Positions 10,698 to 40,195 of a stretch of DNA of 64,000 nucleotides are shown piece after piece (position 1 is the stretch's first letter; every line of letters begins with the position of its first letter). Source of the DNA: Escherichia coli (GTDB lineage: Bacteria > Pseudomonadota > Gammaproteobacteria > Enterobacterales > Enterobacteriaceae); assembly GCF_003334335.1 (NCBI RefSeq), contig NZ_QOWQ01000025.1; one strand, given 5' to 3'. A model generated the notes under the pieces. That model was not told where the DNA came from. It was given only the letters and a program-made list of their open reading frames with translations, and ran no database searches. The position numbers and the translations under genes were made by a program.

Positions 10698-11416
10698 CCG
10701 AGTTACCAATCGACGAAAACACACCGCGTATTTTGATCGTGGAAGATGAACCGAAGCTGGGGCAGTTGCTCATTGATTATCTGCGTGCTGCGAGCTATGC
10801 GCCGACGCTTATCAGCCACGGCGATCAGGTACTGCCGTATGTGCGCCAGACACCACCGGATCTGATCCTGTTAGATCTGATGCTCCCTGGCACCGATGGC
10901 CTGACGCTGTGCCGGGAAATTCGTCGTTTTTCTGACATTCCGATCGTGATGGTGACGGCAAAAATCGAAGAGATCGATCGCCTGCTGGGGCTGGAGATTG
11001 GCGCAGATGATTATATCTGTAAGCCGTACAGCCCACGGGAAGTGGTAGCGCGCGTCAAAACCATTTTGCGCCGTTGCAAACCGCAGCGCGAGTTGCAGCA
11101 ACAGGATGCTGAAAGCCCGTTGATTATCGACGAAGGTCGTTTTCAGGCTTCATGGCGCGGTAAAATGCTTGACCTGACGCCTGCGGAATTTCGTCTGCTG
11201 AAAACGCTCTCTCATGAACCAGGAAAAGTGTTCTCCCGCGAGCATTTGCTCAATCATCTTTATGACGACTACCGCGTAGTAACCGACCGCACCATCGACA
11301 GCCACATTAAAAACCTGCGCCGCAAGCTGGAATCTCTCGACGCCGAACAGTCATTTATCCGCGCCGTTTACGGCGTTGGTTACCGCTGGGAAGCCGACGC
11401 CTGCCGCATCGTTTAG
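10694..11416 (+). CDS. baeR: OmpR-family response regulator BaeR (240 aa)
   Basis: Receiver domain (LIVEDEP...[11 protein letters not shown]) followed by a winged-helix C-terminus. Confidence 0.95.
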
Positions 11417-11606
11417 TTTTAGCGACATGACTTTGTTAGCCGGAGATGGCGTTCAGACCAGATCCGGCAACATTATCCCACGCATGGTCAGCAAACTGAC
11501 ATTATCTCTCCGCCCTGGCAGGCATCAGAAAATCGCTCATACTTTAATCGGTAAACAGCACCTTTAGATGCTGTTTTCGATACGCAATTTCAATCAAGGA
11601 GTCATT

Positions 11607-11939
11607 ATGGCTGGTTGGTTTGAACTCAGTAAGAGCAGTGATAATCAGTTCCGGTTTGTGCTAAAAGCGGGCAATGGTGAGACTATCCTCACCAGCGAGC
11701 TGTATACCTCAAAAGCCTCTGCGGAAAAGGGCATCGCGTCGGTGCGTAGCAACAGCCCGCAAGAAGAACGCTATGAGAAAAAAACGGCAAGTAACGGCAA
11801 ATTCTATTTCAATCTGAAAGCCGCTAATCATCAAATTATCGGCTCCAGCCAGATGTACGCCACCGCGCAATCTCGTGAAACCGGAATTGCCTCCGTTAAA
11901 GCCAATGGCACAAGCCAGACGGTGAAAGACAATACGTAA
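11607..11939 (+). CDS. yegP: UPF0339 family protein YegP (110 aa)
   Basis: ORF 11568..11939 trimmed to the ATG at 11607 (MAGWFELSKSS...), preceded by AGGAG at 11596..11600. Confidence 0.85.
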   Translation: MAGWFELSKSSDNQFRFVLKAGNGETILTSELYTSKASAEKGIASVRSNSPQEERYEKKTASNGKFYFNLKAANHQIIGSSQMYATAQSRETGIASVKANGTSQTVKDNT

Positions 11940-12192
11940 TTACGATGCCGGGCGTGGGTTGTTGGCGTCCGGCTTTATATCCAAATAACGCTTAGTTATT
12001 AATAATTAAGAGTAACCGCCGCCATTAAAATAGTGGGCACTGACGAGCACTCGTTGTGCTTTCTTTGTTTACCATCCCATACTTATCCTCCTGAACATGT
12101 TCATGTGCCAAAATATCTTCTAATACTTTCGTGACGCTATCCGGTTTATGACATACACTGATGTAAGATTTTTACTTACAGGCGGGCGTAAA

Positions 12193-12444
12193 ATGGCCAG
12201 AACGATGACGGTTGATCTCGGCGATGAGTTGCGTGAATTTATCGAGTCCTTAATTGAATCCGGCGACTATCGCACCCAAAGCGAAGTGATCCGTGAGTCA
12301 CTGCGATTACTTCGAGAAAAGCAAGCAGAGTCTCGCCTGCAAGCGTTACGTGACATGCTCGCAGAAGGGTTGAGTAGTGGTGAAGCTCAGCCGTGGGAAA
12401 AGGACGCGTTCTTACGGAAGGTGAAAGCAGGGATAAGGAAATAA
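12193..12444 (+). CDS. ParD-like (RHH) type II antitoxin
   Basis: MARTMTVDLGDELREFIESLIESGDYRTQSEVIRESLRLL is a typical ParD antitoxin N-terminus. The start could instead be the ATG at 12148. Confidence 0.7.
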   Translation: MARTMTVDLGDELREFIESLIESGDYRTQSEVIRESLRLLREKQAESRLQALRDMLAEGLSSGEAQPWEKDAFLRKVKAGIRK

Positions 12445-12445
12445 T

Positions 12446-12742
12446 GTGCGTATTATTAAACTCATGCCAAAAGCCAATGAGGATTTAGAAGGCATCTGGT
12501 ATTACAGCTATCACCATTTCGGCGAACCACAAGCCGACAGATATGTGGAACATCTTTCAGACGTTCTCCAGATTCTGAGTAACAATAATATAGGTACGCC
12601 CAGACCTGAATTAGGCGAAGGTATTTTTGTTCTTCCTTTTGAACGCCACGTCATTTATTTCCTGCAATCACCAGGGGAAATTATCGTCATTCGTATCCTT
12701 AACCAAAACCAGGACGCCACCAGACATTTACACTGGAGCTAA
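12446..12742 (+). CDS. ParE/RelE-family type II toxin (98 aa)
   Basis: 98-aa ORF with a GTG start 1 nt after the ParD stop, giving toxin-antitoxin operon architecture; size and composition fit ParE. Confidence 0.65.
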   Translation: MRIIKLMPKANEDLEGIWYYSYHHFGEPQADRYVEHLSDVLQILSNNNIGTPRPELGEGIFVLPFERHVIYFLQSPGEIIVIRILNQNQDATRHLHWS

Positions 12743-12844
12743 ACCCGCCGATTGCGCTACAATGCCCGCCCTTAAAGTGGGGGCACTCCCCTAACCGCTT
12801 CATCAGGTGAAGCGGATCTGACCTGTCATCAGAACGAGAGAATT

Positions 12845-14206
12845 ATGTTTAAACCGGAACTCCTTTCCCCGGCGGGAACGCTGAAAAATATGCGTTACGC
12901 TTTCGCTTATGGCGCAGATGCTGTTTATGCGGGCCAGCCGCGTTATTCCCTGCGTGTGCGCAACAACGAATTCAACCACGAAAATCTTCAGCTCGGCATC
13001 AATGAAGCCCACGCGCTGGGGAAAAAGTTTTATGTCGTGGTCAACATTGCACCGCACAACGCCAAGCTGAAAACCTTTATCCGTGACCTGAAACCGGTGG
13101 TGGAAATGGGGCCGGATGCGCTGATTATGTCCGATCCAGGGCTGATTATGCTGGTGCGTGAGCACTTCCCTGAAATGCCGATCCACCTTTCGGTGCAGGC
13201 TAACGCCGTGAACTGGGCGACGGTGAAATTCTGGCAGCAAATGGGCCTGACCCGCGTGATCCTCTCTCGCGAGCTGTCGCTGGAAGAGATTGAAGAGATC
13301 CGCAATCAGGTGCCGGATATGGAGATCGAGATCTTCGTTCACGGCGCGCTGTGCATGGCCTACTCCGGTCGCTGCCTGCTCTCTGGCTATATCAACAAGC
13401 GCGACCCGAACCAGGGCACCTGCACCAACGCCTGCCGCTGGGAGTACAACGTCCAGGAAGGGAAAGAAGATGATGTTGGCAACATCGTACACAAGTACGA
13501 GCCGATTCCGGTGCAAAATGTTGAGCCGACGCTGGGTATCGGCGCACCAACCGACAAAGTGTTTATGATCGAAGAGGCCCAGCGTCCGGGCGAGTATATG
13601 ACCGCGTTTGAAGATGAGCACGGCACTTACATCATGAACTCGAAAGATCTGCGCGCCATCGCCCATGTAGAACGCCTGACCAAAATGGGCGTGCATTCGC
13701 TGAAAATCGAAGGTCGTACCAAATCTTTCTACTATTGTGCACGCACCGCACAGGTTTACCGCAAAGCTATCGATGACGCCGCTGCGGGAAAACCGTTCGA
13801 TACCAGCCTGCTGGAAACTCTGGAAGGTCTGGCGCATCGTGGCTATACCGAAGGTTTCCTGCGTCGTCATACTCACGACGATTATCAGAACTACGAATAC
13901 GGTTATTCAGTTTCTGACCGCCAGCAGTTTGTTGGTGAGTTTACCGGTGAGCGCAAGGGGGACCTCGCGGCGGTAGCGGTGAAAAATAAATTCTCCGTTG
14001 GCGACAGCCTTGAGCTGATGACGCCGCAAGGCAACATTAATTTTACCCTTGAGCACATGGAAAACGCCAAAGGCGAAGCTATGCCGATAGCACCAGGCGA
14101 TGGTTATACTGTGTGGCTCCCGGTCCCGCAGGATCTTGAGCTCAATTACGCGCTGCTGATGCGTAATTTCTCCGGGGAAACCACGCGTAATCCCCACGGT
14201 AAGTGA
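12845..14206 (+). CDS. yegQ: U32-family peptidase YegQ (453 aa)
   Basis: 453-aa ORF; conserved Cys-rich U32 motifs (CMAYSGRCLLSGY, CTNACRWEY). Confidence 0.93.
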   Translation: MFKPELLSPAGTLKNMRYAFAYGADAVYAGQPRYSLRVRNNEFNHENLQLGINEAHALGKKFYVVVNIAPHNAKLKTFIRDLKPVVEMGPDALIMSDPGLIMLVREHFPEMPIHLSVQANAVNWATVKFWQQMGLTRVILSRELSLEEIEEIRNQVPDMEIEIFVHGALCMAYSGRCLLSGYINKRDPNQGTCTNACRWEYNVQEGKEDDVGNIVHKYEPIPVQNVEPTLGIGAPTDKVFMIEEAQRPGEYMTAFEDEHGTYIMNSKDLRAIAHVERLTKMGVHSLKIEGRTKSFYYCARTAQVYRKAIDDAAAGKPFDTSLLETLEGLAHRGYTEGFLRRHTHDDYQNYEYGYSVSDRQQFVGEFTGERKGDLAAVAVKNKFSVGDSLELMTPQGNINFTLEHMENAKGEAMPIAPGDGYTVWLPVPQDLELNYALLMRNFSGETTRNPHGK

Positions 14207-14238
14207 TTAATTTCGATTATTTTTCCCGGATGGAAAAT

Positions 14239-14260
14239 TCTTAGAAACCGATCACATACA
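14239..14260 (+). promoter_or_regulatory. Possible CRP site in the cyaR promoter
   Basis: A TCACA half-site (ccgatcacataca) lies about 40 bp upstream of the cyaR 5' end. CyaR is CRP-dependent in K-12; the match is only partial. Confidence 0.3.
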
Positions 14261-14290
14261 GCTGCATTTATTAAGGTTATCATCCGTTTC

Positions 14291-14377
14291 GCTGAAAAAC
14301 ATAACCCATAAAATGCTAGCTGTACCAGGAACCACCTCCTTAGCCTGTGTAATCTCCCTTACACGGGCTTATTTTTT
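14291..14377 (+). ncRNA. cyaR: CyaR (RyeE) Hfq-dependent sRNA
   Basis: GCTGAAAAACATAACCCATAAAATGCTAGCTGTACCAGGAACCACCTCCTTAGCCTGTGTAATCTCCCTTACACGGGCTTATTTTTT matches the known CyaR sequence, including the terminator hairpin and U-tail. Confidence 0.9.
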
Positions 14378-14378
14378 A
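14351..14378. repeat. attL core (AATCTCCCTTACACGGGCTTATTTTTTA), overlapping the cyaR terminator
   Basis: Identical 28-mer is repeated at 48032..48059. Confidence 0.85.
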
Positions 14379-14440
14379 CGTACAATAAATTGAAATAAAA
14401 GGATTTATTTCTGGTCACGTCCACACATTGACCACATCGA

Positions 14441-14466
14441 CAAAAAAGCCCCTCGACTGAGGGGCT
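14441..14466 (-). terminator. Rho-independent terminator downstream of ogr
   Basis: Stem AGCCCCTC / GAGGGGCT with loop GACT, followed on the minus strand by TTTTTTG. Confidence 0.6.
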
Positions 14467-14478
14467 TCCTGTTTGTAA

Positions 14479-14697
14479 TTACATCCACATAATTTGCTGC
14501 CCTGACGGCAACGGGTGCGGTCTTACGGCGTGGACTTCTCCCGGCTTCACGATGTATCGCTGTACCGACTCATAAGTGATGAACGTGGCGCTGCAATTCA
14601 CGTTCTGACACTGGTGATAACGCTCTTTTGTCGTGTCAGTGATATAGCGGCTTGTACGCGCATGTGCGGCATGCTGGCATAAAGGACAATGAAACAT
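14479..14697 (-). CDS. ogr: Late-gene transcriptional activator Ogr (72 aa, zinc finger)
   Basis: MFHCPLCQHAAHARTSRYITDTTKERYHQCQNVNCSATF...; ORF 14479..14760 trimmed to the P2 Ogr start. Confidence 0.9.
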   Translation of the reverse strand: MFHCPLCQHAAHARTSRYITDTTKERYHQCQNVNCSATFITYESVQRYIVKPGEVHAVRPHPLPSGQQIMWM

Positions 14698-14778
14698 CGC
14701 GAGCACCTCTTCCGGTTTTGTTGATGTTGCCATTTTAGTTAATTTATCCTTATAAAACAAACAGATAAATAAAACACA

Positions 14779-15942
14779 TCACTCATCATCTTCTGTTTCG
14801 TACTCCACATCAGAAAGCCTTACCTCAAGCTCCAAAGACGTCGTGAAGCCGCTATTATTCAGAAAATGTGTCACCTTAGTGATTGTCCAGTCCTGCTCGT
14901 CTATGACGCGCTTAAAGCCTGACACTTTAACCGGTGTTTCCGTGTAAATATCTGCCCGACCGGTAGCCAGGCTGATGGAGAACTCCGCGACGCCCCGTTG
15001 CAGTTTGTCCCACTTAGCCTGAGCGGCGCGCATGGCCTGCGCTTTTGTGGCATATACCGTGGTCAGGGCAAAAACGTTGTCAGCCTCACCGGCCATGTAT
15101 TCACCTTCGCGCGCTTCCGGTACTTTTGGCGCTTTCTTCTGCGTGACTGGTTTCGCTTTCGGGTGCTCCAGTGCGCGCAGGTGTTTCTCTTTCTTTTTGC
15201 GCTTCAGTTTTACCTTCTGCTTTTGTGGCTTCGGGTCTTTGGTGTGTAACCACTTTGCCGTTACGCCGGTATAGGCTCCACGGTCAGCAATCGCAAAATG
15301 ATGGCGGTCGCCGTCGCTGCGGGTGATGGTAATCTGCGGGATTTTTTTACCGCTGGCCGTCACCCCCTGCCCCGCTTTGAGAAACAGCAGTTTTCCCATT
15401 TTTACCGACACCTCGCCGCCGTTGCGTTCAGCAAGGCGGGTCAGGAATTTTGCATCAGACTCCTGCGACTGGTCGATGTGCGGGATTTTAATTCCGGCCA
15501 GTGACGGAGCGACACTGGCTTCCAGCCTGTTACGGGAGGCTATCGCCTCAACAATCGCACCGAGCGTGGTGTCATGCCAGGAGCCTTCCCGGCGGGAATT
15601 GAGCGTCCCGCGGAAATCTGCACTCCGGGCGCGGATGGTGACCACATCCGGCGCGCCCCGGTGTTCAACCTCATCAACGGTGAATTTCCCTTTGCATACC
15701 AGGGCAAAACCTTTCCAGCCGATATACACCGTCAGGACAGCGCCACGAACCGGCAGCCCGACCTGCCCGTCGGCATCGTTCAGTTCAATATCAAGCTGGT
15801 CAGCTTCAAAGCCCCGGTTATCCGTCAGAGTCATGCTCATCAGACGGTCGCTGATATTGCCGGTAATATCCCTGCTGTCGAGCATCAGCATGTAATCCGG
15901 CGTCAGCGTACTGCCTGCATCAAATGTCAGCGCATCCAGCAT
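14779..15942 (-). CDS. D: P2 gpD-like tail protein (387 aa)
   Basis: Position and length match P2 gpD. Confidence 0.9.
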   Translation of the reverse strand: MLDALTFDAGSTLTPDYMLMLDSRDITGNISDRLMSMTLTDNRGFEADQLDIELNDADGQVGLPVRGAVLTVYIGWKGFALVCKGKFTVDEVEHRGAPDVVTIRARSADFRGTLNSRREGSWHDTTLGAIVEAIASRNRLEASVAPSLAGIKIPHIDQSQESDAKFLTRLAERNGGEVSVKMGKLLFLKAGQGVTASGKKIPQITITRSDGDRHHFAIADRGAYTGVTAKWLHTKDPKPQKQKVKLKRKKKEKHLRALEHPKAKPVTQKKAPKVPEAREGEYMAGEADNVFALTTVYATKAQAMRAAQAKWDKLQRGVAEFSISLATGRADIYTETPVKVSGFKRVIDEQDWTITKVTHFLNNSGFTTSLELEVRLSDVEYETEDDE

Positions 15943-39192: not shown

Positions 39193-40194
39193 TCACCGAG
39201 CCATCTTGACTGCATAATGAACACAAAAATAATGTTCTCCCGCATATCTAAAATGATGTTCAATTTTTCTCAAACCTATATATGGAGTCTCCACTTCTTT
39301 AATCCCAACTATCTCATGAGATTCTACACCAATATCTACCGGAGTAATCTCTTTTAGATAATCAATGTATCTCTCACACCAAGCATCAAATTTTGCACCA
39401 GTATAATAAGCAATTAAAAACAAGCGTTTAACATTAATAGGATTATAGTTACCAATTAGCTTTGAATAATGCTTTAATATGTTAGCTTGATCTAGAGATT
39501 TTAAAATCAATGCTTCTATTATAGCAAATAGATTTCCTTTATCTTCAATAACAAGATCTAATTCACCCGCACTTTTACCAGATTGAGACTCTCCCTCTCT
39601 AGTTTGATCTTTTACCTCATAATTCTTAGCTAATAACATATCCCGTATAAAATCATTAAAATCATCTTCACCATATCCTTTAGCAGAGCGACGCCCCAAT
39701 CTTTGAAGCACCCAAGATAAATCACTATCAAACTTTATAAAATTCAAAGGACGCTGCACTCGACCATCCTTTGATATTAAGCTTATACTATTAAGATTTA
39801 ACAAATTAATCCTTTGCCTGATTAATTCATCAATATATCCAGAGTAACTATTATTATCTAACACTACGATATGCTTATCAAAAGTAGTGGCTGCATTAGC
39901 AACTGCACAAACAACTATATCCTTAATATCCTCAGAACTATTCGGCACTGGTGTACGCAATATCTTGCCTGAAGGAGCTTTAGATAACTCAGACTCCCAC
40001 TTCTTAAAAAACAAAAAAGAATCCTTGTTGTTTCCGCAAGACTTTAAATAACCTAAGCGAATTTTTCCATCAGCATCAAGAATCAACTCATTTTCACCAT
40101 TAACAATGGTTTCAATAAAAAAACCGCTAAAAACTTTAACATCAGAAATATTAGCAGCAACAAATTCAGGACACAAACAAACAGCACAAAGCAT
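39193..40194 (-). CDS. Cargo island 3: 333-aa partner/effector protein of unknown family (possible nuclease)
   Basis: AT-rich ORF whose ATG lies 1 nt after the upstream ATPase stop. Contains a D-x3-E-x-K-like stretch (ELDLVIEDKG); no family confidently recognised. Confidence 0.6.
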   Translation of the reverse strand: MLCAVCLCPEFVAANISDVKVFSGFFIETIVNGENELILDADGKIRLGYLKSCGNNKDSFLFFKKWESELSKAPSGKILRTPVPNSSEDIKDIVVCAVANAATTFDKHIVVLDNNSYSGYIDELIRQRINLLNLNSISLISKDGRVQRPLNFIKFDSDLSWVLQRLGRRSAKGYGEDDFNDFIRDMLLAKNYEVKDQTREGESQSGKSAGELDLVIEDKGNLFAIIEALILKSLDQANILKHYSKLIGNYNPINVKRLFLIAYYTGAKFDAWCERYIDYLKEITPVDIGVESHEIVGIKEVETPYIGLRKIEHHFRYAGEHYFCVHYAVKMAR

Positions 40195-40195
40195 A

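Follow-up and report, generated by a model that had tools for sequence, protein, structure and literature searches.

The spacer between yegP and yegQ in the 64,000-nucleotide stretch of Escherichia coli DNA analyzed here (hereafter the window; contig NZ_QOWQ01000025.1) very probably carries an intact and functional chromosomal type II toxin-antitoxin operon of the ParE/ParD(PF03693) class. The arrangement is bicistronic, with the antitoxin gene first and the two genes nearly abutting. Under the longest-ORF rule, the first ORF spans 12148-12444 (+), encodes 98 aa and stops with TAA at 12442-12444, and the second spans 12446-12742 (+) and encodes 98 aa from a GTG start, so that the single base 12445 lies between the stop codon and the GTG. 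The pair is flanked by yegP, which ends at 11939, and yegQ, which starts at 12845. In strain E2865, whose locus is 100% identical, RefSeq gives the gene order baeS, baeR, yegP, parD, parE and yegQ, and names the two products 'ParD family antitoxin' (WP_001307279.1) and 'RelE/ParE family toxin' (WP_001220181.1). An earlier reading of the letters alone (the sequence-only reading) had described two adjacent ORFs with a 1-nt gap between yegP and yegQ, and its coordinates and flanking genes were borne out, in agreement with RefSeq for the identical locus. The module is known biology, a member of a well-studied toxin-antitoxin family with genes already named in RefSeq; a literature search with the protein accessions and locus genes found no paper on this parDE locus.

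The product of the first gene matched the Pfam family ParD_antitoxin (PF03693; E 4.7e-19), with residues 1-78 aligned to positions 1-76 of the 81-position model, and the NCBIfam model TIGR02606 at 88.4 bits, against a curated cut-off of 46.2. The Pfam scan returned just one further match, a weak one to RHH_1. Among PDB sequences, the antitoxin matched PrpA (7YCS chain D; E 1.9e-27) as well as other partner ParDs, 7YCS being PrpT/PrpA of Pseudoalteromonas rubra (PMC13048266). Together with the ParE_toxin match (PF05016) of the second gene, all of the HMM comparisons that had been proposed for this pair turned out positive.

The translation start of parD is almost certainly the ATG at 12193, giving an 83-aa antitoxin gene at 12193..12444 (+), and not position 12148, where both the longest ORF and the RefSeq call begin. 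Five lines of evidence point to this start. The PF03693 model and PrpA both align from that Met, and all homologues begin there with MARTMTV. The gene caller gives 83 aa at the orthologous locus of a more distant enterobacterium (L010/L011), and the upstream ATG in L010 is out of frame, lying 46 nt ahead compared with 45 nt in the window. Moreover, the sole non-coding block that is conserved at the locus, comprising the candidate promoter and operator, falls within the 45-nt 'extension'. The ParD-type N-terminus recognized by the sequence-only reading (MARTMTVDLGDELREFIESL...) is thus present, but it is read from the internal ATG 12193 rather than from 12148. Likewise, its description of two 98-aa ORFs holds for the toxin, whereas the equal length appears to be a by-product of ORF calling, the antitoxin being most likely 83 aa. 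In RefSeq the antitoxin probably starts 15 codons too soon, so that the coding call runs over the promoter and operator of the module itself.

The toxin gene parE (12446..12742, +; 98 aa with a GTG start) was assigned from its PF05016 match, its PDB matches and its predicted fold. The protein matched ParE_toxin (PF05016) at E 2e-13, with residues 4-90 on model positions 1-88 of 89. The family PF05016 covers the wider RelE/ParE superfamily, and the fold was therefore tested as well. The PDB sequence matches were PrpT (2.3e-12), M. tuberculosis MtParE1 (5.8e-8), Caulobacter CcParE1 (2.3e-7), V. cholerae VcParE2 (6.8e-7) and Mesorhizobium ParE (4e-3), all five being ParE proteins in ParD complexes, and no RelE-type chain with E <=1 was found among PDB sequences. 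An AlphaFold2 model built on 14 homologues (pLDDT 88.6) displayed a strand at E3-6, helices at H8-25 and H27-47 forming an alpha-hairpin, and a three-stranded antiparallel sheet. In a Foldseek search of the PDB with this model, ranks 1-23 were all ParE toxins, the top five with TM 0.83-0.87, while RelE, YoeB and YafQ appeared from rank 24 onward with TM 0.5-0.65. An mRNA interferase of the RelE/YoeB/YafQ type was ruled out on the missing sequence match at E <=1 and on the TM values, which were weaker than those of ParE. The toxin matched no model in the NCBIfam scan, and its NCBI name derives from other evidence. The second ORF had been judged to fit ParE/RelE in size and pattern; the PF05016 match agrees with that judgement, and the solved-structure and fold matches place the toxin among ParE proteins and not RelE-type RNases.

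Residues implicated in VcParE2 toxicity are partly changed in this toxin. Of five such residues, Y33 and H69 are retained, and Tyr, Phe and Asn86 stand in place of F20, W25 and H88. The Asn86 position is Ser in most other aligned homologues and His in all four of the closest solved ParEs, and Y33 and H68 are invariant in this ParE subfamily according to the homologue alignment. In VcParE2, for which gyrase has been shown to be the target and the alpha-hairpin to be the gyrase-contact surface, H88 was called highly conserved and the change of Trp25 to Phe lowered toxicity (bioRxiv 10.1101/2025.07.24.666505).

Candidate signals for expression of the pair were located by comparison of seven loci, namely the window, IncF-type plasmids of E. 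coli, Klebsiella, Pantoea and Citrobacter (two copies), and L010. Upstream of parD, these loci align only over GTAAGATTTnnnCTTACA, the inverted repeat GTAAG-ATTTTTA-CTTAC (GTAAG-N7-CTTAC) at 12163..12179 (+), which was the only conserved non-coding block. This repeat overlaps the transcription start, predicted at about 12165-12167, and is probably the operator of the ParD ribbon-helix-helix protein; PrpA, for comparison, represses its own promoter and leaves a footprint across the -35/-10 region there (PMC7848731). A putative sigma-70 promoter of parDE lies at 12131..12159 (+), with -35 GTGACG (12131-12136), a 17-nt spacer and -10 TACACT (12154-12159). In L010/L011, GTGACG and TACACT are both kept at the 17-nt spacing with about half of the spacer bases different, and the -10 hexamer of the plasmid homologues reads TATAAT, TATAGT or TAAACT and lies 3-4 nt upstream of the inverted repeat. 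A sigma-70 consensus scan with a threshold of 9/12 reported no promoter on the + strand, because the hexamers proposed here match at 8/12; the proposal thus rests on cross-locus conservation and not on the consensus scan. For parE, a Shine-Dalgarno-like AAGGAA occurs at 12436..12441 (+), inside the 3' end of parD and 4 nt before the GTG, which suggests translational coupling. In the plasmid homologues, parD and parE overlap by 14 nt, compared with the 1-nt gap in the window. All intact homologues keep the GTG start, which fits a toxin translated less than its antitoxin, as measured for PrpT/PrpA.

The borders of the module were defined by alignment with the K-12 empty site. The window is identical to K-12 up to 11973, which is taken as the left edge of the parDE-specific segment since the identity stops there, and unambiguous identity restarts at 12754 (GCGCTACAATG), placing the right edge at about 12753. 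The segment of ~780 bp (11974..12753, +) is replaced by ~20 bp in K-12-type genomes, and its G+C content is 0.43-0.49 compared with 0.52-0.57 in yegQ and baeR. Left of the segment, the yegP terminator hairpin occupies 11947..11973 (+), reading GCCGGGCG...CGTCCGGC followed by TTTATAT, and the terminator-like site scan placed a stem at 11961-11973. Another terminator-like hairpin (GAGCAC-TCGTT-GTGCTT followed by a T-run; 12045..12061, +) is located upstream of the parDE promoter and may insulate parDE against read-through from yegP. The left end of the segment also contains an AT-rich palindromic stretch at 11988-12016 (ACGCTTAGTTATTAATAATTAAGAGTAAC), which bears a partial resemblance to the sequence upstream of the Klebsiella plasmid copy.

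The region downstream of yegQ was surveyed as well. An Rfam search of 11000-15500 at a permissive E-value found nothing within the parDE segment and returned only the CyaR (RyeE) sRNA at 14289-14374 (+; RF00112, 100.7 bits), which lies between yegQ and the end of a prophage. This P2-like (Peduovirus) prophage extends from 14400 to ~48000, just downstream of yegQ and CyaR, and includes ogr (14479-14760, -) and gene D (14779-15942, -); 81-84% of 14400-38000 matches the phages L-413C, R18C and pro147 at 96-97% identity. In K-12, this site presumably holds only an ogrK remnant. The prophage carries a two-gene cargo at 39193-41863 (-) adjoining a probable replication gene (42103-44415). The 555-aa cargo protein (40196-41863) matched the PADLOC ATPase models NsnB (2.3e-51), HEC-03B, PDC-M55A and AriA, and the 333-aa partner (39193-40194) had no PADLOC match. 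The cargo is probably an anti-phage system in a P2 hotspot.

The distribution of the module was surveyed in 5,426 complete E. coli genomes, with separate counts for three states of the yegP-yegQ spacer. The parDE pair was found in 1,844 of the 5,426 genomes (about one third), and the empty state of 146 bp in 3,183 of 5,426 (59%), K-12 and O157:H7 included. A 5.3-kb island encoding PcfJ, DUF1266, DUF4034 and a hypothetical gene occupied the spacer in 298 of the 5,426. The presence/absence counts, with K-12 lacking the pair, confirm the earlier suggestion of a strain-variable accessory module. The spacer is therefore a three-state site (empty, parDE, island), and it offers a natural presence/absence series for chromosomal ParDE function. 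Isolates of bovine, human and avian origin, and one from an echidna, have parDE DNA that is 100% identical. Compared with the intact plasmid homologues, pS was 0.80-0.94 and pN 0.05-0.08 for parD, and pS 0.74-0.79 and pN ~0.21 for parE; with synonymous sites saturated and pN low, both genes appear to be kept by purifying selection.

Two observations bear on the history of the locus. In the island strain A0 34/86 (L009 1407-6733), the island genes are oriented opposite to yegP and yegQ, and the last 19 nt of parE are retained at the yegQ-side junction, indicating that parDE predates the island there. In the more distant enterobacterium (L010/L011, 3627-4398), the order is baeR-parD-parE-yegQ with an 83-aa ParD and a 1-nt gap as in the window, and nucleotide identities to the window are 86% for yegQ, 82% for baeR, 79% for parD and 74% for parE. 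This locus lacks yegP, showing that yegP is not universal at the site. Taken together, the island scar and the L010/L011 synteny suggest an old resident upstream of yegQ that has been repeatedly lost, rather than a recent insertion, and the comparison points to long residence of parDE at this site with deletion or replacement in the majority of E. coli lineages; separate insertions into this one site are a possible alternative. The K-12 empty site was also considered as the product of a deletion at TTTA microhomology, but the sequences concerned (TTTACCAGAGCC... and the parE 3' end TTTACACTGGAGC...) are too short to decide, and the scar at the island junction is the firmer evidence. An exact-pattern scan for the operator and the parD start, a strict search across 100,044 species genomes, returned three loci, in Buttiauxella noackiae, Citrobacter braakii and Superficieibacter sp. 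In the DNA retrieved for these three, neither baeR nor yegQ was present and two of the three had a damaged toxin gene, so they give no help in dating the insertion.

Related modules are widespread on plasmids. Homologous DNA at 69-71% nucleotide identity was found on 881 enterobacterial plasmids, 592 of them conjugative, and it often adjoins a replication initiator gene. Klebsiella, Pantoea and Citrobacter carry intact copies on IncF-type plasmids, and another intact one lies on a Salmonella contig that also has plasmid-type genes; with these copies, ParD shares 90-92% amino acid identity and the toxins just 63-67%. The operator repeat is common to the chromosomal parDE and the plasmid copies. 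The cousin on the E. coli IncFIA/FIB/FIC plasmid NZ_CP113494.1 (L005 2345-2890) is a pseudogene, in which parD is frameshifted after 50 codons and parE contains an in-frame stop (DI*HYGY). Genes for a RepB initiator and a tyrosine recombinase lie close to this copy. BLAST matches to many other E. coli plasmids showed the same identity (68.6%) and the same span.

By analogy with characterized ParDE systems, the following mechanism can be proposed. The ParD ribbon-helix-helix dimer would bind GTAAG-N7-CTTAC over the transcription start and repress the operon, and the C-terminal half of ParD would wrap around ParE and neutralize it. With its GTG start coupled to the parD stop, parE would be translated less than parD, leaving the antitoxin in excess. 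Once the labile ParD is depleted, free ParE would trap DNA gyrase on DNA, and the trapped gyrase would cause double-strand breaks, induce the SOS response, make cells filament and either arrest their growth or kill them. In net effect the module is most likely selfish, an accessory element that stabilises itself. That DNA gyrase is the target of this ParE is favored on analogy, with gyrase stated as the target of the ParE family (PMC6614396), but is held with distinctly less confidence than the functional-operon reading because of the residue changes relative to VcParE2 and because no target of PrpT is stated in the PrpTA literature found. ParE toxins act on gyrase, the quinolone target, and one comparative study found that gain of a ParDE-family module tends to precede quinolone-resistance mutations in E. 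coli, an observation that concerns ParDE-family modules generally (PMC10575684).

The most substantial alternative, itself unlikely, is that the pair has the ParE fold but belongs to a PrpT-like subclade that acts on something other than gyrase or has an attenuated activity that is bacteriostatic. PrpT, the nearest relative with a solved structure, has no stated target in the literature found, and in its native host it leads to lysis and the appearance of ghost cells (PMC7848731); some ParE toxins, such as PaParE1, are described as non-toxic (bioRxiv 10.1101/2025.07.24.666505); and the toxin has Asn in place of the conserved H88, where most other aligned homologues have Ser, and Phe in place of Trp25, the very change that weakens VcParE2. 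On the other hand, PrpT both kills and filaments E. coli (PMC7848731), which fits DNA damage, the model confidently includes the alpha-hairpin of the gyrase-contact surface, neither Y33 nor H68 varies within the subfamily, and those ParEs with a target stated in the literature found all act on gyrase or topoisomerase IV. A decaying, non-functional remnant would be compatible with absence from 59% of the genomes, with some truncated toxin variants in the protein collection and with the frameshifted homologues on E. coli IncF plasmids, but it is highly improbable for a locus in which both ORFs are full length against their profiles, purifying selection is strong, the promoter, operator and GTG start are conserved, and identical DNA recurs across cattle, human, bird and echidna isolates.

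Contributions to persistence or phage defence had also been raised in the sequence-only reading, and neither found support. An abortive-infection or phage-defence module would be triggered by the decay of ParD once an infecting phage had stopped transcription in the host. A role against phages is possible for toxin-antitoxin systems in general (PMC7167474), the site holds another accessory island in other strains, and one homologue, in Yersinia mollaretii, lies beside holin and lysozyme genes. However, neither protein matched any family in PADLOC-DB 2.0 at E <=0.1, a comparison with PHROGs returned just generic antitoxin families or families of unknown function, there are no defence genes adjacent to parDE, and the nearby P2-like prophage is unrelated and parted from it by yegQ and CyaR, leaving this explanation very unlikely. 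Somewhat less remote, though still quite unlikely, is a main function residing in ParD, either as a DNA-binding regulator or as an anti-addiction factor that neutralizes plasmid ParE or binds plasmid sites in the way PrpA binds iterons. The antitoxin is far better conserved than the toxin relative to the plasmid cousins, the operator repeat is present in the plasmid copies too, the homologous plasmids are numerous, often conjugative and with the module beside the initiator gene, and PrpA regulates plasmid replication (PMC7848731); yet the toxin is intact and under purifying selection, which implies that the whole pair is maintained, and the E. coli IncF copy of NZ_CP113494.1 is a pseudogene. 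The narrower proposal that chromosomal ParD acts as an anti-addiction or cross-regulatory factor against plasmids bearing the cousin module is speculative and improbable; it derives from the high ParD identity and the shared operator set beside the lower toxin identity. If true, ParD would blunt post-segregational killing or alter plasmid copy control in the third of E. coli carrying parDE, and would influence which plasmids these lineages keep or lose. The unequal conservation of antitoxin and toxin makes this plasmid cross-talk testable.

Among characterized systems, PrpT/PrpA of the P. rubra plasmid pMBL6842 (7YCS, 7YCU, 7YCV, 7YCW) is the best solved match for both proteins, with a TM of 0.87 for the model. 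Both systems pair a ParE with a PF03693 ribbon-helix-helix antitoxin encoded by the first gene, the sizes are alike (98-aa toxin and 83-86-aa antitoxin), and the N-terminal strand is nearly identical (RTMTVDLG here and RTMTVDTG in PrpA). PrpA is produced in excess of PrpT (PMC7848731). The two differ in that PrpTA is plasmid-borne and PrpA binds iterons, limiting copy number (PMC7848731), whereas the module here is chromosomal with no replication origin nearby. In addition, prpA and prpT overlap by 8 nt in place of the 1-nt gap here, the PrpA motif TTTG(T/A)AAT differs from the repeat GTAAG-N7-CTTAC, and PrpT and the present ParE share 32% identity in structural alignment.

ParD2/ParE2 of Vibrio cholerae (7R5A), ParD1/ParE1 of Caulobacter (3KXE) and ParDE1 of M. 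tuberculosis (8C24) have the same fold and operon architecture. Their antitoxins were matched by the present ParD with E 3e-12 to 9e-11, and their toxins, V. cholerae ParE2, Caulobacter ParE1 and M. tuberculosis ParE1, all linked to gyrase in the literature found, are 26-31% identical to the toxin here in structural alignments; VcParE2 differs at the H88 and Trp25 positions described above. ParD/ParE of plasmid RK2 shares the toxin superfamily and the addiction-module logic. Its ParD is placed in PF09386, a family with no relation to PF03693 (PMC7848731), and an RK2-type ParD was rejected here, the Pfam scan of the antitoxin having given no PF09386 match. ParDE-I (YacA/YacB) of IncI1/IncF resistance plasmids is likewise a ParE-superfamily toxin-antitoxin system on enterobacterial plasmids with gyrase as the predicted target (PMC6614396). 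Its toxin and antitoxin are only 15% and 21% identical to Caulobacter ParE1 and ParD1, and database annotations call its antitoxin Phd- or RelB-like (PMC6614396). It was considered as a plasmid cousin and rejected as another lineage, set apart by its authors' own description.

The closest parallel in genomic setting is a small module that also sits between core genes in some E. coli lineages only, the chromosomal ccd of E. coli O157 in the folA-apaH spacer. An anti-addiction role has been proposed for chromosomal ccd. It differs from the present module in its toxin, CcdB, which belongs to an unrelated family, and it has been used to illustrate how plastic the insertion sites of toxin-antitoxin modules are (PMC7167474).
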